Positions 14-7,879 of a DNA stretch of 7,879 bases are shown in pieces (the stretch's first letter is position 1; every line of letters starts with the position of its first letter). Source of the DNA: a virus (lineage: Duplodnaviria; Heunggongvirae; Uroviricota; Caudoviricetes); IMG/VR virus record IMGVR_UViG_2671180456_000014, one strand, 5' to 3'. Both the position numbers and the translations under genes were made by a program. The notes beneath the pieces were generated by a model. It was given only the letters and a program-made list of their open reading frames with translations, was not told where the DNA came from and did not search any database.

Positions 14-35
14 AGCGCCCACTATGGGCGCTTTT
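14..35 (+). terminator. terminator-like hairpin, copy 1
   Basis: AGCGCCC-actat-GGGCGCT 7-bp stem at 14-32 followed by TTT; identical stem-loop recurs at 285-303. Sits directly upstream of the RBS of ORF 49-279, so it probably ends an upstream gene outside the window. Confidence 0.45.
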
Positions 36-48
36 AAGGAGCTTAATC

Positions 49-279
49 ATGTTTATTCTTATCGCTGGCGTTAACGTGCGCAATGAATATTTTGTTAATC
101 GCATCGCTGGGATCGCTGGTTACGCTGGGCGCGCAGTCGAGTTTATCGATGAAACGACGCGCAAAATTGACTTATTGAGCGACCAGGAGCGAAAAAAAGC
201 AGACGTGAATGACGCTGATATATTTTTAATGCTAAAAGCGTTTGTAGAAATGGGATTTAAAATCAGTTTGCACAAATAA
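49..279 (+). CDS. hypothetical small protein, 76 aa
   Basis: ATG at 49 preceded by AAGGAG (36-41) with 7-nt spacer; TAA stop at 277-279; followed by strong hairpin terminator. No family recognised. Confidence 0.5.
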   Translation: MFILIAGVNVRNEYFVNRIAGIAGYAGRAVEFIDETTRKIDLLSDQERKKADVNDADIFLMLKAFVEMGFKISLHK

Positions 280-284
280 AATCA

Positions 285-308
285 AGCGCCCACTATGGGC
301 GCTTTTTT
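285..308 (+). terminator. Rho-independent terminator
   Basis: AGCGCCC-actat-GGGCGCT 7-bp stem (285-303) followed by TTTTTT (303-308), 6 nt after the stop of ORF 49-279. Confidence 0.65.
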
Positions 309-332
309 CGTTTCCAATACTCCCACCATAAC

Positions 333-354
333 GCGCCAATGATGGCGCTTTTTT
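333..354 (+). terminator. second tandem hairpin terminator
   Basis: GCGCCA-atga-TGGCGC 6-bp stem (333-348) followed by TTTTTT (349-354). Confidence 0.5.
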
Positions 355-525
355 ATTGTCTTTGACTCACTCCAACAACATAAAAATAAGCGCCAAAATA
401 ACGCCATAGACGCGCTTTTATATCCTTACCAGTACATACCCATTACTTAGCGCATTAACGCGCTTAAATCGCGTTATATTGCGTTATGGTGTATGGTCAA
501 TCATTGGCTTTTATTCTTGCTATGT

Positions 526-570
526 GATCCGCGTTTAATTGTCGGCGCGGATCGGCATTTTGTTTTGTTC
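526..570 (+). terminator. hairpin followed by T-rich tract (terminator-like)
   Basis: GATCCGCG (526-533) and CGCGGATC (546-553) form an 8-bp inverted repeat with 12-nt loop, followed by ggcaTTTTGTTTTGTT. No gene assigned. Confidence 0.3.
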
Positions 571-596
571 CGTATCCGCTCGCGTATTATGTGCGC

Positions 597-641
597 GTGA
601 TTTTTCACATAATCACACCACTTAATCACATATGTGATTAC
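597..641. promoter_or_regulatory. operator-like palindrome cluster
   Basis: Perfect 18-bp palindrome TAATCACATATGTGATTA at 623-640; direct repeat of the TAATCACA half-site at 610-617; inverted GTGATT at 597-602. Target gene unknown. Confidence 0.4.
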
Positions 642-768
642 GCTACGAAAGAAATCTGGATGTCTCAGGCGACGAAAGTCATCATAATTTTCCCCGCTCA
701 CCTGTCCGACAACCGCTGGTTGGATTCCACCAGCTTCCCGATGTTTTTTCTATATAAAGGCGAATGCA

Positions 769-881
769 GCCGTTTCCCGAAAAAATCCTGGCCGTTTCCC
801 GTCGGCTCATGAATGCGTTCCTCGCCGTTTCTGAAAATTTCCCTGCGGCAGCTGGTGGCTATAGAGAAAGGGCCGTTTCTG
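769..881. repeat. iteron-like direct repeats (GCCGTTTCY), 4 copies
   Basis: GCCGTTTCCC at 769-778 and 791-800, GCCGTTTCTG at 824-833 and 872-881 (last copy lies inside the gene A terminator hairpin). Same orientation and same core as the array at 4373-4501. Confidence 0.5.
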
Positions 882-886
882 GCCCT
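861..886 (-). terminator. Rho-independent terminator of gene A
   Basis: On minus strand: GGGCC-agaaac-GGCCC hairpin (870-885) followed by UUUCUCUAU; begins 8 nt after the gene A stop. Confidence 0.5.
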
Positions 887-894
887 CTTCTCAG

Positions 895-1377
895 TTACAC
901 GCCATCAAGGATGTGGATGCGGTTGCTTGCGTATACATTCAGCATAAAGTTAGCGCAAAACAGTTTCCATGTATCAACGCCAGCGGTATACGTAATGTTT
1001 TTGCATTTAATCGCATTGTTGGCGATCCGCATCCCCTGCGATACTGCTTCATCGTCGGAAAATTTGAACGACGATTGAGTTTTAATCCAGACAGAAATCT
1101 GCGTAGCGAACTCAATCAGCTTGGACTGGCAGAATCGCCCGGAGCGCACCGGAAAGACGAACGTTCCGAATCCAGAATTTACCACATACGCTTTCTCAAA
1201 TACCCGCGAGTAACGACGATTGCCAATGATGTCGCGTGCAATAATGCATTTTTCTTGTGCTGACAGTTCTACCGTCTCATTGTCGCGCCATGCACCAAGT
1301 ACTCGTTTTTCAATGTCAGAGAACGTTACAGCGATATTGCCATGTGCGGGTGCGTTTACAGTAGCGATAAAATTCAT
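895..1377 (-). CDS. hypothetical protein, 160 aa (cassette gene A)
   Basis: ORF track 895-1377; ATG at 1377-1375 preceded by AAGGA with 7-nt spacer; own promoter motif and own terminator. No family recognised. Confidence 0.6.
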   Translation of the reverse strand: MNFIATVNAPAHGNIAVTFSDIEKRVLGAWRDNETVELSAQEKCIIARDIIGNRRYSRVFEKAYVVNSGFGTFVFPVRSGRFCQSKLIEFATQISVWIKTQSSFKFSDDEAVSQGMRIANNAIKCKNITYTAGVDTWKLFCANFMLNVYASNRIHILDGV

Positions 1378-1433
1378 GATTAATTCCTTATCGTAAATAA
1401 CAAATTGTTTTCTTGTTGGTGTTAATTATCGTT
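1378..1433 (-). promoter_or_regulatory. conserved cassette promoter and 5' leader (copy A)
   Basis: Sense strand: cGATAATtaacaccaacaagAAAACAATTTGTTatttacgatAAGGAattaatcATG. -10 GATAAT at 1425-1430; C/A-rich leader with palindromic core AACAAATTGTT (1399-1409); SD. Confidence 0.5.
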
Positions 1434-1552
1434 GTACGAATAAGGCGTCAAAGTGGAAAGTTGCGGTAGCCGGACGGGAACAGGTGGGTTTGTCGGTTGC
1501 CTGGAGGTAAGAGGTTGGTGTTTTTAGCCTGCGGGAAACAGGATGGTCATTT

Positions 1553-1576
1553 AAGGCCACCAGCATTGGTGGCCTT
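1553..1576 (-). terminator. stem-loop 5 nt after gene B stop (putative terminator or 3' stabiliser)
   Basis: AAGGCCACCA-gcat-TGGTGGCCTT 10-bp stem; no clean U-tract after it on the minus strand (uuaaaugacc). Contains the Chi octamer on the minus strand (CCACCAGC at 1557-1564). Confidence 0.4.
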
Positions 1577-1581
1577 ACTCT

Positions 1582-1863
1582 TTAGTGTAGCAGACCGATG
1601 TCGATGGTATCCCCTGAATCATCCACACGGATCATCAGCATGGCGAAGGCGTTTAGTGGATAGCTTGCGTGCCATTCAGGGAAGCGGTCATCTCGCATGA
1701 AGTCGGCAATGTCGTAAACGCAGCCCTCAAAGTGGAAGAATCGCGTGCTTACCTGCTCGTCATATTCCACATGATCCATTTCTTGCTGTTCTGTTTCCGG
1801 CAAGTCCAGCCATGATTCAAGGAATACATTTTGTGCTTTAGGGGTAATGGTGAAATCAGTCAT
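1582..1863 (-). CDS. small strongly acidic hypothetical protein, 93 aa (cassette gene B)
   Basis: Start chosen at ATG 1863-1861 (MTDFTITPK...) because GAGGA sits 7 nt upstream; the longer track ORF (to 1995) would run through the promoter motif. About 20 Asp/Glu versus 5 Lys/Arg by my count. Confidence 0.6.
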   Translation of the reverse strand: MTDFTITPKAQNVFLESWLDLPETEQQEMDHVEYDEQVSTRFFHFEGCVYDIADFMRDDRFPEWHASYPLNAFAMLMIRVDDSGDTIDIGLLH

Positions 1864-1917
1864 GAGCATATCCTCACTGCGTAAACATGTTGTTTTCTTG
1901 TTGGTGTAATTATCGCA
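1864..1917 (-). promoter_or_regulatory. conserved cassette promoter and 5' leader (copy B)
   Basis: Sense: TGcGATAATtacaccaacaagaaaacaACATGTTtacgcagtGAGGAtatgctcATG. Extended -10 (TG + GATAAT, 1909-1914 with TG at 1915-1916); palindromic AACATGTT core. Confidence 0.55.
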
Positions 1918-2010
1918 GTGTAGATAAGGCATAAAAGAAGTTAATACAGGCTGAATACACAAGAAAGGTTCTGGAAGTTGATAGCCAGGTTTCAAACTAA
2001 CCTTCGGTTA

Positions 2011-2047
2011 TTAAAAGTCATTTAAGACCACCAATGCTGGTGGCCTT
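2011..2047 (-). terminator. hairpin terminator after ORF C'
   Basis: AAGACCACCA-atgc-TGGTGGCCTT stem (2024-2047, one G-U pair in RNA), followed on the minus strand by AAAUGACUUUUAA. Same stem as 1553-1576 but with the 4-nt loop inverted. Contains Chi GCTGGTGG on the plus strand (2036-2043). Confidence 0.5.
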
Positions 2048-2052
2048 AATAA

Positions 2053-2196
2053 TTATCGCCCGATTACGCTAAGGATCTTTTCCTCAACTGATTTGTTGTT
2101 GCGACTAAACTGCCTTGCGTATCTGATGACAGAAGAGGCGTTTCGCTTTCTGACCATCTCGGCTCTCTCCTTCAGGCGTTTCTTGAAATCGCCCAT
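2053..2196 (-). CDS. small basic ORF, 47 aa (C'), translationally coupled to gene C
   Basis: MGDFKKRLKERAEMVRKRNASSVIRYARQFSRNNKSVEEKILSVIGR. ATG at 2196-2194 lies 2 nt after the TAA of gene C (TAAatATG); stop at 2053-2055, 5 nt before the conserved hairpin. Below the ORF-track length cutoff; called by hand. Confidence 0.3.
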   Translation of the reverse strand: MGDFKKRLKERAEMVRKRNASSVIRYARQFSRNNKSVEEKILSVIGR

Positions 2197-2198
2197 AT

Positions 2199-2573
2199 TT
2201 ACCACCAGGCGCAGAAGGTCAGTCTGTTATTGTGAAAGTCGTGGTTCTTAATCAGATCTTCCACAAGCTCTTTCAACTCCCCCACATCATGCCAGTAACC
2301 TTCATCGTACTCCTGACTGCCGAAGAAAAAACCTTCCCGGGTAGGCAAGTACTCTTCGCAATTACTTTCGTTTATGTGCATCAAATGAGCCTTCAGAAAA
2401 CAAATGTCATTCATCGTTAATTCTAAAAGCTCACAATTTTCGACTTCACCTACGTTGCGCTCCATCCACCCAACGAGCGCATTGAACTTACGGAAGTAAG
2501 CAACCTGCTTTCTGGATGCCTCGTTATTCAGATCGTTTTTAGGCTGTGTCTCGATATAGATATCAAGTCCCAT
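2199..2573 (-). CDS. acidic hypothetical protein, 124 aa (cassette gene C)
   Basis: Start chosen at ATG 2573-2571 (MGLDIYIE...) with AAGGAAA 5-8 nt upstream; alternative GTG start at 2615 gives the 138-aa track ORF. Confidence 0.55.
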   Translation of the reverse strand: MGLDIYIETQPKNDLNNEASRKQVAYFRKFNALVGWMERNVGEVENCELLELTMNDICFLKAHLMHINESNCEEYLPTREGFFFGSQEYDEGYWHDVGELKELVEDLIKNHDFHNNRLTFCAWW

Positions 2574-2650
2574 GATGGTTTCCTTATTAAGTTGCTTCAG
2601 TGAAATCATTTTCACAAATCAGATAAGGCAGAAAACAAATTGTTATCGGG
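2574..2650 (-). promoter_or_regulatory. upstream region of gene C with one copy of the palindromic core
   Basis: Sense: ccGATAACAATTTGTTTTCtgccttatctg... Core at 2631-2644. Arrangement differs from the other cassettes and the -10 is not clear. Confidence 0.3.
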
Positions 2651-2682
2651 CATAATAAAATGGCGCGGTTTACGCGCCATTT
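2648..2682 (-). terminator. Rho-independent terminator of gene D
   Basis: AAATGGCGCG-gttta-CGCGCCATTT 10-bp stem (2658-2682), followed on the minus strand by UAUUAUG; 8 nt after the gene D stop. Confidence 0.6.
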
Positions 2683-2690
2683 AAAGAGGA

Positions 2691-3086
2691 TTAAGCGAAT
2701 ACGCTTTCAGGGATTAAGGTGTCAGCAGGAATGCCGGAGGTAATGCGCAGACCATACTGGCCAATCCAGGCGGTGTTGGTATTCAGGTTGGAGGCGAATA
2801 CGGTGTTAACCATATTCATCATTGGTTCAAACACCTCTTCATCAACCTGGCGGAAGTAGTTCTCGATTTTCAGCAGCAGCGGGTCAGTTGCATCGAAAAT
2901 AGACTGGTATTGAGTCTCGTACTCGCCGCCGGAGGCATCACCTTTACGCACGATCGTACTGGCCTGGACTTCGGCGCCAGTTTCGGTGTTGTACGTAACA
3001 ACGGTGATTTTTGCCACATTCTTACCTTCGGCGGTTTCAGAGGCATAGTAAACATCAACTGTCAGTTTTTCGCGTTTAACGGTCAT
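2691..3086 (-). CDS. hypothetical protein, 131 aa (gene D)
   Basis: Start ATG 3086-3084 (MTVKREKLTVDVYY...) with GGAGAG SD; the track ORF extends 22 codons upstream across the promoter. Has its own sigma70-type promoter rather than the cassette motif. Confidence 0.6.
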   Translation of the reverse strand: MTVKREKLTVDVYYASETAEGKNVAKITVVTYNTETGAEVQASTIVRKGDASGGEYETQYQSIFDATDPLLLKIENYFRQVDEEVFEPMMNMVNTVFASNLNTNTAWIGQYGLRITSGIPADTLIPESVFA

Positions 3087-3110
3087 TTCACTCTCCGTAG
3101 TGTTTTGGTT

Positions 3111-3147
3111 ATTTTTATATTCTATGATCGTAAGTATGTACTTACAA
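3111..3147 (-). promoter_or_regulatory. sigma70-type promoter of gene D with overlapping inverted repeat
   Basis: Minus strand: -35 TTGTAA (3147-3142), 17-bp spacer, -10 TAGAAT (3124-3119). Inverted repeat GTAAGTA-tg-TACTTAC (3130-3145) overlaps -35 and spacer. Confidence 0.55.
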
Positions 3148-3150
3148 TAC

Positions 3151-3180
3151 AAAAAAAAGCCCCGTAAGGATGGCGGGGCT
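3151..3180 (-). terminator. Rho-independent terminator of gene E
   Basis: Minus strand: AGCCCCG-ccatcctta-CGGGGCT followed by UUUUUUUU (the A8 run at 3151-3158 on the plus strand). Confidence 0.7.
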
Positions 3181-3214
3181 GTCGTACGGTCGACTAATTA
3201 CCACTTGCACATTA

Positions 3215-3526
3215 TCAGGCTATTGCCATCACTGATGCTCTCTGAATTTCTTGCTGGGCCACGCGGTTAACTTCCATCAAAGCCAGTTCGAGCTGATGTT
3301 CCGGCCACATTCTTTGAAATGCCATCCAGCCTTTTCCACGCTGGCGACGAACATTCATTACATAACGAGTAAAGGTGTTTTTATCGAAAGACACCGCTGT
3401 TTCACGGAACAGACGAATAGAGGTTCCATTGGCAACGATGTCCAGCAAAGTTAATTGAGCAACCAGCGCAGGCTTCTCTTTTCTCTTCTGGTCTTTGTCC
3501 AGACCAAGAACCAATGATTTTTTCAT
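3215..3526 (-). CDS. small basic hypothetical protein, 103 aa (cassette gene E)
   Basis: Start ATG 3526-3524 (MKKSLVLGLDKDQKRKEK...) with GGAG 5 nt upstream; TGA stop at 3215-3217. Lys/Arg-rich N-terminus and RRQRGKG stretch. Confidence 0.6.
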   Translation of the reverse strand: MKKSLVLGLDKDQKRKEKPALVAQLTLLDIVANGTSIRLFRETAVSFDKNTFTRYVMNVRRQRGKGWMAFQRMWPEHQLELALMEVNRVAQQEIQRASVMAIA

Positions 3527-3573
3527 TACAACTCCGTAAACAACTTGTTTTCTCAATGGCGTAAATAATACCA
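3527..3573 (-). promoter_or_regulatory. conserved cassette promoter and 5' leader (copy E)
   Basis: Sense: TGgTATTATttacgccattgagAAAACAAGTTGTTTacGGAGttgtaaATG. Extended -10 (TG + TATTAT, 3565-3570); palindromic core 3538-3554. Confidence 0.5.
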
Positions 3574-3639
3574 GTAAGAAAACGGCTACAAAGCATATTG
3601 ATCAGGCGCATGAGCGATATGCAGGTTCTTCCCTGCGGC

Positions 3640-3670
3640 TATAGAGAAATTAAGCCAGCATTGCTGGCTT
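3640..3670 (-). terminator. hairpin terminator of gene F
   Basis: AAGCCAGC-att-GCTGGCTT stem (3652-3670) followed on the minus strand by AAUUUCUCUAUAG; same ctatagaga flank as the gene A terminator. Confidence 0.5.
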
Positions 3671-3679
3671 TGGTTGGGG

Positions 3680-4009
3680 TTACTCGAATACTTCAAGAAA
3701 CTCCTGAACGTCCCAATGCTGGACGAGGTGAAGATAGACCTTAGAAATAACGTCATTCTCGCTATCGCATGTGAAGTAGTACTTCTGGCTGCGGTTGTAT
3801 GTGTCCACACAAAATTCGCTCATATCCATAAAGTCAGCATCTTCACCCATGTCGCAAATCATCAAAGCAGGTGCGTCATCACGAGTCATCAGCTCAAGCA
3901 CCCACCGCGAATTGATCAGAGTGGAAGACCAACCTTCTAACTCATAAAACTGATCAAACTCTTTTTGAGTTAATTTCTTAATTTGGTTGATGTCGATATT
4001 TGCAAACAT
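3680..4009 (-). CDS. small strongly acidic hypothetical protein, 109 aa (cassette gene F)
   Basis: Start ATG 4009-4007 (MFANIDINQ...) with AAGGA 7 nt upstream; the longer track start (4030) falls inside the leader motif. About 22 Asp/Glu versus 8 Lys/Arg by my count. Confidence 0.6.
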   Translation of the reverse strand: MFANIDINQIKKLTQKEFDQFYELEGWSSTLINSRWVLELMTRDDAPALMICDMGEDADFMDMSEFCVDTYNRSQKYYFTCDSENDVISKVYLHLVQHWDVQEFLEVFE

Positions 4010-4056
4010 AAAGCAATCCTTAAACAACATGTTTTCTTGATGGTGTTATTATCGCA
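4010..4056 (-). promoter_or_regulatory. conserved cassette promoter and 5' leader (copy F)
   Basis: Sense: TGcGATAATaacaccatcaagaaaACATGTtgtttAAGGAttgctttATG. Extended -10 GATAAT at 4048-4053 with TG at 4054-4055. Confidence 0.55.
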
Positions 4057-4372
4057 ATAACGCACAGGCGAAAAAGAGTTTTATTCCGGTGAATGTGGTT
4101 TTGGCAGTGAGTTTTCAGGTTCAGTACCGAGTACACTTTTTACATTATTCTGATTTAGTGGCCGAAGGTGGCTGGTGGGCAGAATAATCATCTCCCCGAA
4201 AACCTACTGAAATCGATTGTGACCCGTTGGCTGTCTGGCACAATTACGCTGTAGCTGGGCATTCAGAGGGAATCCAGCGGTAAGTAAGTTCGCCTGCACG
4301 TGAGCGCCTCTCTTCTTCCCGCACATTACAGGTGGGCAGCCGCAACTCTCCCTCACGCTATACCGGTACGCC

Positions 4373-4501
4373 GCCGTTCCTGAACCGGCATCGAGCCTTT
4401 TCCCGAAATCCACACAGGCAACTCGACCGTTTCCCTGAAAACCTCCAGCCGTTCCCCGAAGGCAACCCAGCCGTTTCTGTAGCGGGATGCAGCCTTTTCC
4501 C
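4373..4501. repeat. iteron-like array: 6 direct repeats at about 22-bp period
   Basis: Plus-strand GCCKTTYCC cores begin at 4373, 4395, 4426(7), 4448, 4470, 4492 (spacings 22, 31, 22, 22, 22). Minus-strand reading is GGRAAMGGC. Confidence 0.6.
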
Positions 4502-4559
4502 TGTATGGACCGAAGGCTGACCGTAGGGGTGTTACGGGGGATAAAATCAGGAGTTGAAT

Positions 4560-4590
4560 AAATACGAAAAAGGAGGCGACACCCCTCCTT
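4560..4590 (-). terminator. Rho-independent terminator, no ORF upstream
   Basis: Minus strand: AAGGAGG-ggugucg-CCUCCUU followed by UUUCGUAUUUAUU. Lies between the orphan promoter motif and the iteron array. Confidence 0.5.
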
Positions 4591-4623
4591 CCCTCCCCAC
4601 TTATACATACCTGTCTTGTTCGC

Positions 4624-4657
4624 TATACATGTTGTGTTTTCTTCGTGTTTTATCTGT
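4624..4657 (-). promoter_or_regulatory. orphan (ORF-less) copy of the cassette promoter and leader motif
   Basis: Sense: agATAAAAcacgaagaaaacacaACATGTatagcg aligns with cGATAATtaacaccaacaagaaaacaaTTTGTT; -10 is degenerate (GATAAA). No credible ORF before the terminator at 4560-4590. Confidence 0.35.
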
Positions 4658-4699
4658 TTCAACCTCTCTATAGGCGTTAATGCTCACTCCTTCCAGAAC

Positions 4700-5460
4700 G
4701 TTCTATACGGCGACTATTTCTGTTGGTGAATTGGGTGTGTTGTTTTCTCTGTCGGTGTATGTGGTTTCGTTAGTTTTGCGGTGGTTCTTCTATGGGGTGT
4801 TCTCGTCGTTTTGGTGATTGTTCTTCTCCGTGTATGGAGTAATGGCAGGTGGGCGATTGCTTTCGTTATTGTGTTTGAGTTGTTTGTCTGGAGTGTGTGA
4901 AAGGCTTTTGTAGTTATTCGTGTGTTGGGTAATGGCGTTTCCCGTGATTGTTATGTTTCGTGTCTTTTGGGATTGAGAGAAGCCTTGCGGTTACAGGCTT
5001 CGTTGGGGTTTCAGTGATTCTGGTGTTTCTTCGCTGTTTGGGGAATGGCGTATCGTGGGTATTGCGCGTATGAATGTTTTCGGATTGCCTGTGAAAGTTA
5101 GGTTGGTTGTCCGGTAGCCTGGGAAGAAGAGGTGGGTCTTTTCGGTAGCCTGCCATAAAGAGGTTGGTTGTTTTGGGTAATGGCATATGTGTTATTTAGT
5201 TGTTTTGTTATGCCTGAAAATAAGTTGTTTATATGGTTGTGTAACGCAACGGGAACGATTTTGAGCGTGTGTTTTTGTTGGTAGTGTGTTGGGTCGTCTG
5301 TGGTGAAAATTGGACGCTGTGGCGCTGTCTGCTGCGTAGAGTTACGGGTATAAGCAGTGATGTGTGAAAACGTCAATTTTTTAGACCAAATCGGGTGAAA
5401 GCGTTGATGTTTCGTTGATCTGTTATTCAGTTGTTTTCTTGATTGTATAAACAACTATAA
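4700..5460. repeat. strongly G/T-skewed non-coding region of degenerate intergenic-module repeats
   Basis: Plus strand is about 80% G+T in sampled stretches. Recurrent GGTAATGGC units near 4842, 4931, 5044, 5180; 5113-5185 aligns with the region upstream of promoter A (1464-1540); degenerate promoter-motif copies at 5274-5290 and 5431-5445. No credible ORF on either strand. Confidence 0.55.
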
Positions 5461-5518
5461 CTTATTGATATTTAAGGATGTGATTGCGGGTATGGAAGGG
5501 GAGTAGTGGCGATCAACG

Positions 5519-5538
5519 GATTCTTATAGAAAAGAATC
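5519..5538. other. inverted repeat downstream of gene H
   Basis: GATTCTT-atagaa-AAGAATC 7-bp stem; no U-tract on the minus strand, so not a canonical terminator. Confidence 0.3.
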
Positions 5539-5564
5539 AAATTGTGACCGCCATTATCAATGTT

Positions 5565-6299
5565 TTACTTAGTTTTGTTTAGCAGAGAGAGAATTTCATC
5601 ACTAATTTCACTCGCCTGTTTGATAGCCAATGCAGTTACCTCTTCTATGGTTGGTGACTGTTGATGCTCATATTTGGTTTCGGTTATGACAATGTGTTCT
5701 TCACCAGAATTTGCGCATAGTGCCGCATTGACGATAAGGTTTGAGTAAGAATTTAGCAGAGCACTGTTGATGAACGCTTTCACGGTATTACTGTCTGCAC
5801 CAAATACATCTTTTCTGACCGCTTCAGCCTCACAGCGAACCCCTGCAGCAACATCGTGAAGAACATGTATGGCCTTGGAGCTTGTTTGTTCACAGTACTC
5901 AATCATTATTGTCGAATTGTTCTGTTCAACAAACGATCTGATGCCTGACGATTTACCCATAGCATCGAAGGCAGCGTGACCCGCACTAGTAGAGATATCT
6001 TCATAGAGTTCTTCATCGCTATCTTTTTCTTCAGGTGTCGAGGTGTCTTCATCGTCGTAATAGATATTGCCTTTAATCAGTGTCTTGGACACTTGATATA
6101 AACAATAAGAAACGAGATTTAAGCATTGGATTTTAGCTGTATTGTCCTTTGTCGCCTCGCTCTTCAGTTCTTTCGCTTCTTCAGTAAGGCTGTTGATAAG
6201 ACTTTGTATTTTTTCCAACGCGTTAGGTGCACACTCCGCGTTGTCCATAAAGAATTTATAACCAGTTCCAGGGATTTCTAAACTTTTCAACTTTTTCAT
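5565..6299 (-). CDS. hypothetical protein, 244 aa (gene H), AT-richer than its surroundings
   Basis: ORF track 5565-6299; ATG 6299-6297 with AGGA about 11 nt upstream; 45 nt after gene G with no promoter motif of its own, so probably co-transcribed. Acidic patch YYDDEDTSTPEEKDSDEELYED. No Walker, HTH or transmembrane signature seen by eye. Confidence 0.6.
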   Translation of the reverse strand: MKKLKSLEIPGTGYKFFMDNAECAPNALEKIQSLINSLTEEAKELKSEATKDNTAKIQCLNLVSYCLYQVSKTLIKGNIYYDDEDTSTPEEKDSDEELYEDISTSAGHAAFDAMGKSSGIRSFVEQNNSTIMIEYCEQTSSKAIHVLHDVAAGVRCEAEAVRKDVFGADSNTVKAFINSALLNSYSNLIVNAALCANSGEEHIVITETKYEHQQSPTIEEVTALAIKQASEISDEILSLLNKTK

Positions 6300-6344
6300 T
6301 TCTTTGATAATCCTAAAAACAAACTACCAATGCTTTAATATCTG

Positions 6345-6644
6345 TTACCAGTTCCAGCACTCAAGCCCTTCAACGACCGGTGCACCACAATCAAAATGTA
6401 CAGAGTCAAAGCCTACATCAAGTACTTTCTGAATGTTAGCAATCGCGCCTTCGGATATACCATATCGACGCAAGTCGTCTTTCCAGACATCATCCTGTAA
6501 CCCGGCGTGGACAATACAACCGCCGTCAATTTGCGAAACCCAATCCAGCTCATTGCTTGCGATCATGAATCGACGAGCATCTTCCTCTGATGTATGAGAT
6601 GAACTGATCAATGCCACCTGGTAGGCTTGGGTAATGTTCAACAT
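6345..6644 (-). CDS. small acidic hypothetical protein, 99 aa (cassette gene G)
   Basis: Start ATG 6644-6642 (MLNITQAYQ...) with GGAG 8 nt upstream; the track uses an upstream GTG at 6653. TAA stop at 6345-6347. Confidence 0.6.
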   Translation of the reverse strand: MLNITQAYQVALISSSHTSEEDARRFMIASNELDWVSQIDGGCIVHAGLQDDVWKDDLRRYGISEGAIANIQKVLDVGFDSVHFDCGAPVVEGLECWNW

Positions 6645-6722
6645 TTCAACCACTCCGAAACAATTTGTTTTCTTATGTGGCTTATTATCTCAATTAACAA
6701 AAGGCAGAAAACAAATTGTTTT
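6645..6722 (-). promoter_or_regulatory. conserved cassette promoter with two palindromic cores (copy G)
   Basis: Sense: AAAACAATTTGTTTTctgccttttgttaatTGaGATAATaagccacataagAAAACAAATTGTTTcGGAGtggttgaaATG. Extended -10 GATAAT at 6684-6689; palindromic cores at 6658-6671 and 6709-6722 flank it. Confidence 0.55.
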
Positions 6723-6754
6723 AGGGTATGCGTAAATCAGAAGGGATTGTGTCT

Positions 6755-6786
6755 ATATGAAAATGCCCAGCGTGTTGCCGGGCATT
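6755..6786 (-). terminator. probable metG terminator
   Basis: Minus strand: AAUGCCC-ggcaacacgcu-GGGCAUU followed by UUCAUAU, about 20 nt after the metG stop. Confidence 0.45.
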
Positions 6787-6805
6787 GCGAACAGAGGTTG
6801 TTTAA

Positions 6806-7879
6806 TTACTTAACCTGGTGGCCTGGTTTAGCACCAGCATCCGGGCTTAACAGGAAGATATCTTTCCCGCCGGGGCCAGCAGCCATCACCATGCCTTCGG
6901 AGATACCGAAGCGCATTTTACGCGGTGCCAGGTTAGCCACCATAATGGTGTGACGACCAATCAGTGCCTGTGGATCTGGATAAGCGGAACGGATGCCTGA
7001 GAAGACATTACGCTTTTCACCGCCGAGATCCAGCGTCAGGCGTAGCAGTTTGTCAGAACCTTCTACAAACTCTGCGTTTTCAATCAGCGCCACGCGCAGG
7101 TCAACTTTGGCGAAGTCGTNNNNNNNNNNNNNNNNNNNNNNNNNNNNNNNNNNNNNNNNNNNNNNNNNNNNNNNNNNNNNNNNNNNNNNNNNNNNNNNNN
7201 NNNNNNNNNNNNNNNNNNNGTCAGGCGTAGCAGTTTGTCAGAACCTTCTACAAACTCTGCGTTTTCAATCAGCGCCACGCGCAGGTCAACTTTGGCGAAG
7301 TCGTCAAAGGTGATAGTTTCCTGAATCGGGTCGTCAGCCAGTGGGCCAGTTACCGGTGCGGCTGTGGCTTTCACTTCTTCTTTGGATGCTTCCACCAGTG
7401 CTTCAACCTGCTTCATATCGATGCGGTTATACAGTGCCTTGAACGGATTCACTTTATGGCCCAGCAACGGTTGCTGGATGCCATCCCAGGTTAGTTCTGT
7501 ATTGAGGAATGCCTCTGCACGTTCAGTCAGTTTTGGCAGTACCGGTTTCAGGTACGTCATCAGCACGCGGAACAGATTAATGCCCATAGAGCAAATCGCC
7601 TGCAGATCGGCATCGCGTCCTTCCTGCTTCGCCACCACCCACGGAGCCTGTTCATCGACATAGCGGTTAGCCAGGTCAGCCAATGCCATGATTTCACGGA
7701 TAGCTTTACCAAATTCGCGGCTTTCCCATGCTTCGCCAATCACTTCAGCGGCATCAGTAAAGGTTTTGTACAGTTGCGGGTCAGCCAGTTCGCCTGCCAG
7801 CACGCCGTCAAAACGCTTGTTGATAAAGCCTGCATTACGAGAGGCCAGGTTAACCACTTTGTTCACGATATCGGCATTC
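6806..7879 (-). CDS. metG: methionyl-tRNA synthetase, 3' portion (runs off window; interrupted by assembly gap)
   Basis: Minus-strand translation gives ...[105 protein letters not shown], which I recognise as the enterobacterial MetG C-terminus (tRNA-binding domain). TAA stop at 6806-6808. The apparent frame change is fully explained by the 100-N gap plus 85-bp duplication (185 bp, not a multiple of 3). Confidence 0.9.
7035..7304. repeat. 85-bp exact duplication flanking the gap (7035-7119 = 7220-7304), assembly artefact
   Basis: Identical sequence gtcaggcgtagcagtttgtcagaacc...ggcgaagtcgt on both sides of the N run; collapsing one copy and the gap restores a continuous metG reading frame. 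Confidence 0.9.
7120..7219. other. scaffold gap (100 N)
   Basis: Run of exactly 100 n characters. Confidence 0.97.

Follow-up and report, generated by a model that had tools for sequence, protein, structure and literature searches.

The window, by which is meant the whole stretch of 7,879 nucleotides that was analysed, is, to judge by its sequence, a piece of an SSU5-like phage-plasmid. By megablast, window bases 14-7100 match E. coli plasmids of ~108 kb at 98.3% identity and Escherichia phage Cyrano (OV696614, the plasmid-prophage pLF82 of strain LF82) at 98.5% identity, with weaker matches to Klebsiella phage-plasmids and Salmonella phage SSU5. The orientation of the window is the reverse of that of the Cyrano record. 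Read from right to left, it contains the 3' end of a plasmid-borne metG, gene G (6345..6644, minus strand, 99 aa), gene H (5565-6299), an ORF-free stretch of 1.5 kb, and genes F (3680..4009, 109 aa), E (3215..3526, 103 aa), D (2691-3086), C (2199..2573, 124 aa), B (1582..1863, 93 aa) and A (895..1377, 160 aa). Gene A opens the series of small monocistronic genes, and genes A to F are all encoded on the minus strand. The products of A, B, C, E and F belong to no family, and the DUF5983 C-terminal domain of gene G is the sole Pfam match among the window proteins. None of these proteins matched a DNA-binding family, which agrees with an earlier reading made from the sequence only, in which no regulator gene could be identified in the window. 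A terminator-like hairpin follows every small gene of the window with the exception of H, which directly follows G. The monocistronic genes of the island have a promoter, a leader and a terminator each. Also encoded on the same element are T4-like proteins of replication and recombination (gp32-, UvsW- and UvsY-like).

This analysis was concerned with the palindrome AAACAA-N-TTGTTT (AAACAAnTTGTTT), which is present in eight copies in the window when about one is expected. The window was searched on the plus strand with AAACAANTTGTTT, allowing no more than two mismatches, and 200 shuffles served as the null. The shuffles gave 0.97 +/- 0.99 sites and none of the 200 reached eight. The palindromic core described in the sequence-only reading is thus real, and the coordinates given there for its copies were right to within 1-4 bases. 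The leader copies, designated class I, are those of gene A (1398..1410, which reads TAACAAATTGTTT on the plus strand and has one mismatch), gene B (1883..1895, one mismatch at an inner position), gene E (3538..3550, perfect), gene F (4022..4034, one mismatch at an inner position) and gene G (6658..6670, perfect). The orthologous copy of the gene A palindrome is free of mismatches in SSU5 and in Klebsiella. When the upstream regions of A, B, E, F and G are aligned, a common promoter-leader module is seen in which the palindrome lies, with respect to the minus strand, between a -10-like hexamer and the Shine-Dalgarno sequence, as had been proposed, and the end of each copy is 12-21 nt from the start codon. 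The -10 hexamers predicted from the sequence and the alignment are GATAAT at 1425..1430 (minus strand) for gene A, 1909-1914 for gene B, TATTAT at 3565-3570 for gene E, 4048-4053 for gene F and 6684-6689 for gene G.

Two copies, designated class II, lie upstream of a promoter at about -38. The copy before gene C (2633..2645, one mismatch) abuts the -35 region, with a predicted -10 hexamer, GAAAAT, at 2608-2613, and is found immediately past the gene D terminator. The second copy of gene G (6709..6721) is perfect and lies 51 bp, centre to centre, from the leader copy. Both positions agree with those given earlier. The claim that every leader contains the core held for A, B, E, F and G, but not for D and H, which are without a copy, nor for C, which has the upstream copy only; gene G has both. 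Gene H does not have a leader of the palindrome-bearing kind, and gene D has another palindrome, TAAGTACATACTTA, in its promoter spacer at 3131-3144. The remaining copy (5218..5230, one mismatch) was not in the earlier list; it lies in an ORF-free, GT-rich stretch, and the same location is kept in the SSU5 and Klebsiella relatives.

The anatomy of the site was derived from an alignment of 26 leader copies from Cyrano and SSU5. The mirrored positions of the two half-sites contain 1.3/1.5, 1.7/1.7, 1.7/1.2, 1.7/1.7, 1.5/1.7 and 1.5/1.1 bits of information, and the centre base contains 0.0 bits. High information is limited to AGA-AAACAA-n-TTGTTT-A and to one T located 14 nt upstream of the palindrome, which closes the -10-like hexamer and contains 1.7 bits. 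The distance from the palindrome to the -10 hexamer is fixed and the distance to the start codon is variable. The earlier proposal of an operator with two-fold symmetry downstream of the -10 is supported by the equal half-sites, the free centre and the fixed -10 distance. If this hexamer is the -10, the class I palindrome would span about +8..+20; we infer this placement from predicted start points, and the consensus promoter scan did not return these promoters.

The class II copies are located 18-19 nt upstream of the -10 hexamer, with the centre near -38 and the right half reaching into the -35 region. In Cyrano they are found before gene C, gene G and an Eae-like gene. Six promoters of the Klebsiella plasmid pfekpn2511-2 have the full palindrome at -38 only, and their leaders keep the left half at most. 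These six sites are 53-60 nt before the start codon, and GATAAT is found 18-19 nt downstream of the palindrome. The 51-bp spacing of the double sites recurs in four genomes (Cyrano, SSU5, Klebsiella pJN2-26 and Klebsiella pfekpn2511-2). At G, C and the Eae-like gene, the class II copies could instead belong to the leaders of divergent antisense promoters; the Klebsiella promoters which have class II copies only do not allow this reading.

Not all conservation in the leaders belongs to the palindrome. The sequence AGAAAACAA, which comprises the left half and its flank, is found at the leader position of several promoters that are without TTGTTT. Since it is conserved by itself, part of the class I signal does not come from the palindrome. 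In addition, an A-rich left flank, AAGAAAACAA, is conserved in the leader copies, and the overlap of this A-rich leader box with the palindrome causes the leader copies to look asymmetric. The island promoters have in common a module of ~65 bp that includes a TGCCTTWT-like block near -30. They are weak by the sigma-70 consensus, from which they deviate, with a gap of 15 bp between the TTGACG-like and GATAAT hexamers. Other promoters of the element contain a different palindrome family in the spacer between -35 and -10, which indicates several promoter classes in the element.

The palindrome is distributed throughout the Cyrano genome. With no more than one mismatch allowed, 18 sites were identified (4, 3 and 11 in three segments of 28-40 kb, with ~0.3 expected per segment), compared with about one expected for the genome overall. 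Nearly all of them (16 of 18) are intergenic in a genome that is 13.9% intergenic (P about 2e-12), and 13 of the 18 are at the leader position of predicted leaders in a single orientation. The distance from copy to start codon ranges from 12 to 41 nt. The genes behind these copies are terS, parA, the replicative helicase gene, cobT, nrdB, a TerB-like gene, several genes of unknown function and the island genes; terS is preceded by two copies that are 25 bp apart. SSU5 has 20 copies at orthologous promoters, the divergent Klebsiella plasmid pfekpn2511-2 has 21, palindromes are present in the syntenic island of two Klebsiella phage-plasmids, and a 40-kb stretch of Y. pestis pMT1 has three, namely the terS pair and one other. 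In a Moellerella relative, whose gene order is the same, no copy stands in promoter context. The site is found at ~17-21 promoters spread round the whole 108-kb phage-plasmid. The suggestion of a single regulator for the whole island is supported in its operator idea, but was too narrow, as the island is a fraction of this range.

E. coli, Salmonella SSU5, two Klebsiella lineages and Y. pestis pMT1 share the 12 specified bases at their orthologous promoters, and the flanks and spacers around the palindrome diverge between those hosts. The palindrome promoters of terS, parA, the helicase gene, cobT and nrdB also have unrelated flanks. Viral contigs were scanned for AGAAAACAANTTGTTT. Among the matches listed, the contigs with multiple hits are about 50-112 kb, the clearest being 90-112 kb, a size range that fits SSU5-like elements; the other contigs among the matches listed have single, apparently chance, hits. 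The palindrome motif was not found in the literature searched.

Expression of the genes behind the palindromes was taken from RNA-seq of the LF82 lysogen, in which the Cyrano background is 9.8 normalised reads (PMC9928086, S1 Table). Most motif-bearing first genes are at background, from 5.7 to 12.9 reads: gene C and gene 58 (5.7 each), gene B (6.7), the tciA-like gene (7.0), terS and gene 87 (7.1 each), gene G (7.5), cobT (7.8), gene E (12.2), gene F (12.8) and nrdB (12.9) (PMC9928086). The helicase gene (21 reads), gene A (25.5) and parA (49.8, about 5-fold over background) are higher, and the two genes after parA are at 89 and 55 reads (PMC9928086). This pattern fits repression in the prophage state. 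However, the promoters are weak by sigma-70 rules, so silence in the lysogen may reflect a missing activator and not a repressor.

From these results, AAACAA-N-TTGTTT is probably an operator that is common to a phage-wide regulon and is the target of a symmetric repressor, which would hold phage genes off in the plasmid state. Beyond the symmetry and spacing of the leader copies, the operator idea is supported by the -38 copies, some of which are the sole copy of their promoter, and by background expression in the lysogen. The bound factor would be a symmetric protein that probably acts as a dimer or as two dimers, and it is probably a product of the element's own genes. Binding near +14, just past the -10 hexamer, would block open-complex formation or promoter escape, and binding near -38, at the upstream edge of the -35, would keep RNA polymerase from binding. 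At the double sites, 51 bp is about five helical turns, so that two bound proteins could flank the polymerase site. The genes for replication, nucleotide metabolism and packaging and the small accessory genes, A, B, C, E, F and G included, would then be silent as long as the element is a plasmid-prophage. One point against this reading is parA, which carries the site and is nevertheless expressed at about 5-fold above background.

Several other explanations have to be considered. The palindrome could be an RNA-level element of the leader, that is, a 5' UTR bound by the element's own FljA-family protein or by host Hfq with translation blocked or the mRNA destabilised as a result. For this explanation speak the single orientation of the 13 of 18 Cyrano copies in predicted leaders, the A-rich flank AAGAAAACAA, which is also present in leaders without the right half, and a FljA-family gene ~2 kb away, which is expressed in the lysogen, has two Hfq-like domains in its model, and is present together with the motif and absent from the motif-less Moellerella plasmid; the Salmonella fliC leader also has the 8-mer CAAGTTGT. 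However, a single-strand RNA binder provides no rationale for reverse-complement symmetry with a free centre, and the full -38 palindromes, including the sole copies, are outside the mRNA, since the predicted mRNA of the -38-only promoters would not include the palindrome. In the five window leaders no stable or common fold was found (minimum free energies of -0.9 to -5.5 kcal/mol, z of -1.2 to +1.0), and a hairpin was rejected as the common element because these leaders fold weakly and each differently; with its one-base loop, the palindrome itself is unable to form one. The only Rfam match was below threshold and unrelated to the palindrome. The alternative offered earlier, that AAC-AAG-AAA in the leader is an A-R-N run of the kind bound by the distal face of Hfq, did not hold up: this reading is found in leaders A and B only, and A-R-N runs are not enriched (the longest is 2-3 triplets in 11 of 13 Cyrano leaders, with P of 0.09-0.98 for at least the observed length against composition-matched shuffles). 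Without a fold, a hairpin or runs above chance length, the Hfq reading is unsupported as stated. In addition, the site matrix gives the Salmonella fliC leader a score of -6.2, which places it 90th within its 8-kb locus, compared with 18-32 for real sites; it gave no match in the E. coli fliC leader, and the FljA-like protein falls to 34% identity in Klebsiella while the palindrome is constant. For the mirror symmetry and free centre, the spacing that is fixed to the promoter and variable to the start codon, and the full copies outside the mRNA, the palindrome reads as a DNA site rather than an RNA element, and an RNA element as its primary role is improbable. A distinct RNA-level layer is possible, given the separate conservation of AGAAAACAA and the FljA-family protein nearby.

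An explanation that is also unlikely is positive control, in which the palindrome would be the site of a phage activator acting after induction or an intrinsic part of a phage-specific promoter and initial-transcribed module. The deviation of the promoters from the sigma-70 consensus, their 15-bp hexamer spacing and their absence from the promoter scan speak for it, as do the ~65-bp module common to the island promoters and the different palindrome family at other promoters. A centre at -38 is a plausible position for an activator as well, and the element encodes two small, putatively winged-helix-like proteins, CYRAN_37 and CYRAN_123, that are silent in the lysogen. Against it, a centre near +14 is unusual for activators and usual for repressors at bacterial promoters. 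Also, this one palindrome is found at terS and at replication, par and accessory genes, and it is unlikely that all of these make up a single temporal class; parA bears the palindrome yet is on in the lysogen. A site for a conserved enterobacterial DNA-binding protein, either IHF-like or a host transcription factor, would account for 12 specified bases that are constant in lineages whose own proteins are at 30-60% identity, and for the absence of the motif from the relative in Moellerella (Morganellaceae). The core also resembles the IHF consensus WATCAANNNNTTR, but it mismatches two conserved positions, the T of ATCAA and the final R, and it is symmetric, whereas the IHF consensus and IHF sites are asymmetric. 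To our knowledge, no host regulator has the consensus of this palindrome, and a host factor is held to be quite improbable. No LexA box (CTGT-N8-ACAG) was found at the palindrome; the LexA boxes are upstream of the integrase and S24 peptidase genes. Lastly, the palindrome could be a functionless passenger in a recently duplicated promoter cassette, as leaders A, B and F are 60-75% identical over 55-76 nt. This is very improbable and already contradicted, since the palindrome is also found in the promoters with unrelated flanks (terS, parA, helicase, cobT and nrdB) and stays at orthologous positions from genus to genus as the flanks diverge.

If the palindrome is an operator, the candidates for its cognate protein are CYRAN_29, CYRAN_114, CYRAN_117, CYRAN_37 and CYRAN_123. 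The leading candidate is CYRAN_29, a protein of ~119 aa encoded directly after parA, the promoter of which carries the palindrome. Its expression in the lysogen is 89, about 9x background. Its relatives, down to about 49% overall identity, all keep the segments SRTMS.EDE and FTRSDVIRAAI unchanged, which parallels the invariance of the palindrome. As a reading of this sequence pattern, CYRAN_29 may be ribbon-helix-helix-like, with the two segments as the DNA-reading strand and the second helix. The order of elements in the model (pLDDT 64) is coil or strand, helix 48-60 and helix 70-84, which, like the FTRSDVIRAAI motif, is compatible with a ribbon-helix-helix protein of the ParG/omega type. 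This monomer model is of low confidence, and no match to CYRAN_29 was found in Pfam, in PDB sequence or profile searches or in the fold search; a ParB domain was not found either. The Moellerella relative has a CYRAN_29 homologue with a near-identical putative strand, yet no genome-wide palindrome, which argues against a simple link between CYRAN_29 and the site.

CYRAN_114 is a full-length FljA-family protein (Pfam Flag1_repress, E = 1e-80) encoded about 2 kb from the window. Its model (pLDDT 80) has two Hfq-like domains, and the Foldseek matches are almost all Hfq chains; no link between FljA and an Hfq-like fold was found in the literature searched. The gene is found in ~835 plasmid records, pMT1 among them, and occurs in the motif-bearing Cyrano, SSU5, Klebsiella and pMT1 elements and not in the motif-less Moellerella plasmid. 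It is expressed in the lysogen (LF82 RNA-seq, PMC9928086). FljA has been reported to act on fliC mRNA. The fliC leader was rejected as a copy of the site, since only the 8-mer CAAGTTGT is in common and the matrix score is poor. Because of this poor match, and because the protein diverges (34% identity in the Klebsiella lineage) with the site unchanged, CYRAN_114 is kept as a candidate for an RNA layer on AAGAAAACAA and not for the palindrome. When the proteins were filtered against one motif-less genome, that of the Moellerella relative, CYRAN_37, CYRAN_62 and CYRAN_114 remained as nucleic-acid-binding candidates. CYRAN_37 and CYRAN_123 are small and, from their sequences, appear winged-helix-like; CYRAN_37 has Pfam matches below threshold only, and both are silent in the lysogen, as are the element's two ParB-domain proteins. 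CYRAN_45, an HTH 'putative repressor', is an unlikely binder, as its own intergenic region contains GGTAAGTGCTTACC and no copy of the motif, and its gene is absent from SSU5, which keeps 20 sites. The 5' end of CYRAN_117 contains a sequence that resembles the motif, but neither SSU5 nor Klebsiella keeps it, and it is thus a chance occurrence.

A more specific proposal joins these candidates: CYRAN_29, as a ParG/omega-like partition protein, would silence ~20 promoters through the palindrome, a FljA-family RNA layer would act on AAGAAAACAA, and FljA itself would be a domesticated phage regulator. In this full form the proposal is speculative and rather unlikely to be correct. If true, SSU5-type elements, including those of the pHCM2 type and Y. 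pestis pMT1, use a partition protein as a global silencer, like KorB of RK2.

The operator reading can be compared with several known systems. In P1, C1 binds many operators scattered over a plasmid-prophage of ~100 kb at separate promoters, and keeps lytic and accessory functions off in the lysogen. The likeness is one regulator with promoter operators dispersed around a plasmid-prophage; however, the P1 operators are asymmetric 17-mers with the consensus ATTGCTCTAATAAATTT, and the site here, a 13-bp palindrome, is unrelated to them in sequence. The annotation shows no C1 homologue. RK2 KorB has 12 OB operators (TTTAGCSGCTAAA), which are also 13-bp palindromes of the form 6-N-6 at many promoters, some near -35. 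KorB, of the ParB family, is both a partition protein and a global repressor; here the par promoter has the site and the protein encoded after parA is the candidate binder. In contrast to KorB, the site has another sequence, the candidate has ~119 aa and no ParB domain, and both ParB-domain proteins of the element are off in the lysogen. In the linear phage-plasmid N15, scattered sopC-like palindromes are bound by SopB, some of them at phage promoters, which links maintenance and expression. N15 is thus also a phage-plasmid with palindromic sites dispersed through its genome, but with four sites and a SopAB system of type Ia, compared with ~20 sites at fixed promoter positions here. Sites of the LacI O1 type resemble the class I copies in that a symmetric site over about +1..+20 is bound by a symmetric repressor, with auxiliary operators in helical phase that allow bracketing or looping; the sequence and the protein family are unrelated, and the start points in our case are predicted ones. 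For FljA and fliC, the likeness consists of a FljA homologue near the island, targets between promoter and Shine-Dalgarno sequence, and CAAGTTGT in the fliC leader. The differences are that FljA is reported to act on RNA, that the fliC leader is a poor matrix match, and that the palindrome also occurs outside transcripts. T4 RegA likewise acts at an A/U-rich leader element of many early genes of one phage, but RegA sites overlap the start codon and are non-palindromic, and no match to the RegA family was found among the small proteins tested. In its logic, the dispersed palindromic site of SSU5-type elements resembles the dispersed operators known from plasmid-prophages and broad-host-range plasmids (P1 C1, RK2 KorB and N15 SopB), but it has the sequence of none of them.

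SSU5-type phage-plasmids are very common in clinical Enterobacteriaceae and carry resistance genes, and they include relatives of Salmonella Typhi pHCM2 and Yersinia pestis pMT1. No description of how lytic genes are silenced in these elements was found in the literature searched. A 13-bp site at ~20 promoters provides a bait for the master regulator, a definition of the regulon and a handle for engineering or inducing these elements. For the window, it means that the small genes of the island belong to a phage-wide circuit and not to a separate island. Both marker genes searched were found together in about 800 plasmid records.

The TAAGTAnnTACTTA palindrome constitutes a second family of sites, present in eight copies in Escherichia phage Cyrano. 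One copy lies in the window at 3131-3144, within the -35/-10 spacer of gene D, a member of the small-gene block, and the other seven are found at 3528, 9023, 22453 and 38253 of segment L002 of the Cyrano record, at 5264 and 32600 of L003 and at 25112 of L004. Copies outside gene D are located upstream of tail, tail-fibre, cobS, thyX and parB/uvsW genes, and TAGGTA...TACCTA variants occur at more promoters in the Moellerella relative. The position of the palindrome recalls P1 late promoters. The regulator served by this palindrome is probably not the one proposed for AAACAA-N-TTGTTT.

A leader box, AGAAAACAA, is situated ~13 nt downstream of the -10, including in promoters that do not contain the right half of the AAACAA-N-TTGTTT palindrome. 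It was identified at 5431-5454 of the window, Cyrano L003 5321, position 35650 of Salmonella phage SSU5 (L009) and in Klebsiella pfekpn2511-2. Because promoters without the right half keep the box, it represents an element of the leader or of the initial transcribed region that is conserved in its own right. The leader upstream of terS (Cyrano L002 57-134) carries two copies of the AAACAA-N-TTGTTT palindrome at a spacing of 25 bp. Between this pair and the start codon, a GC-rich hairpin ending in a T-rich tail is conserved; this terminator-like structure suggests antitermination control of the late operon.

The gene for a FljA-family protein is located ~2 kb past the left end of the window (Cyrano L004 20780-21301) and is a core gene among SSU5-type plasmids, including Y. 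pestis pMT1. The Cyrano protein matches the Pfam family Flag1_repress (E = 1e-80). Its AlphaFold model (pLDDT 80) predicts two Hfq/Sm-like domains in tandem, and the Foldseek matches of this model were nearly all Hfq chains. The literature searched contained no link between FljA and an Hfq-like fold.

LexA boxes (CTGT-N8-ACAG) were identified upstream of the integrase gene (Cyrano L003 1046-1061) and of a gene encoding only an S24 peptidase (L004 9277-9292), and a distinct palindrome, GGTAAGTGCTTACC, is present in the CYRAN_45/46 immunity region (L003 2605-2618). This arrangement fits the ciprofloxacin induction reported for Cyrano. In the same segment, CYRAN_43 (L003 268-822) encodes 184 amino acids of no known family. 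It is by far the top-expressed prophage gene (~7000 normalised reads, 720 times background) and is not present in SSU5, the Klebsiella plasmid or the Moellerella plasmid.

Arrays of CCGTTYCY repeats, mostly at an iteron-like spacing of 22 bp, are located on either side of small-gene block A-F (window 770-880 and 4374-4480). No other such array was found in the 108-kb element, and none adjoins repA. Within the block, genes B and C have terminators (1551-1577 and 2023-2049) that form almost the same 27-nt hairpin, AAGGCCACCAGCATTGGTGGCCTT, but in opposite orientations; thus, the small-gene cassettes have terminators in common and not just promoters.

Window positions 4600-5460 contain no ORFs and are strongly GT-rich (A 17%, C 13.5%, G 29.5%, T 40%), with repeats such as GGTAATGGC; part of this stretch is conserved in SSU5. 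Its minus strand would yield a CA-rich RNA of ~850 nt, for which a degenerate promoter of the leader type near 5440-5460 would provide the start and a terminator-like hairpin at 4593-4567 the end. Lastly, metG contains a run of 100 N (7120-7219) with an exact 85-nt duplication on its two sides (7035-7119 and 7220-7304), an arrangement that appears to come from scaffolding or assembly rather than from biology.
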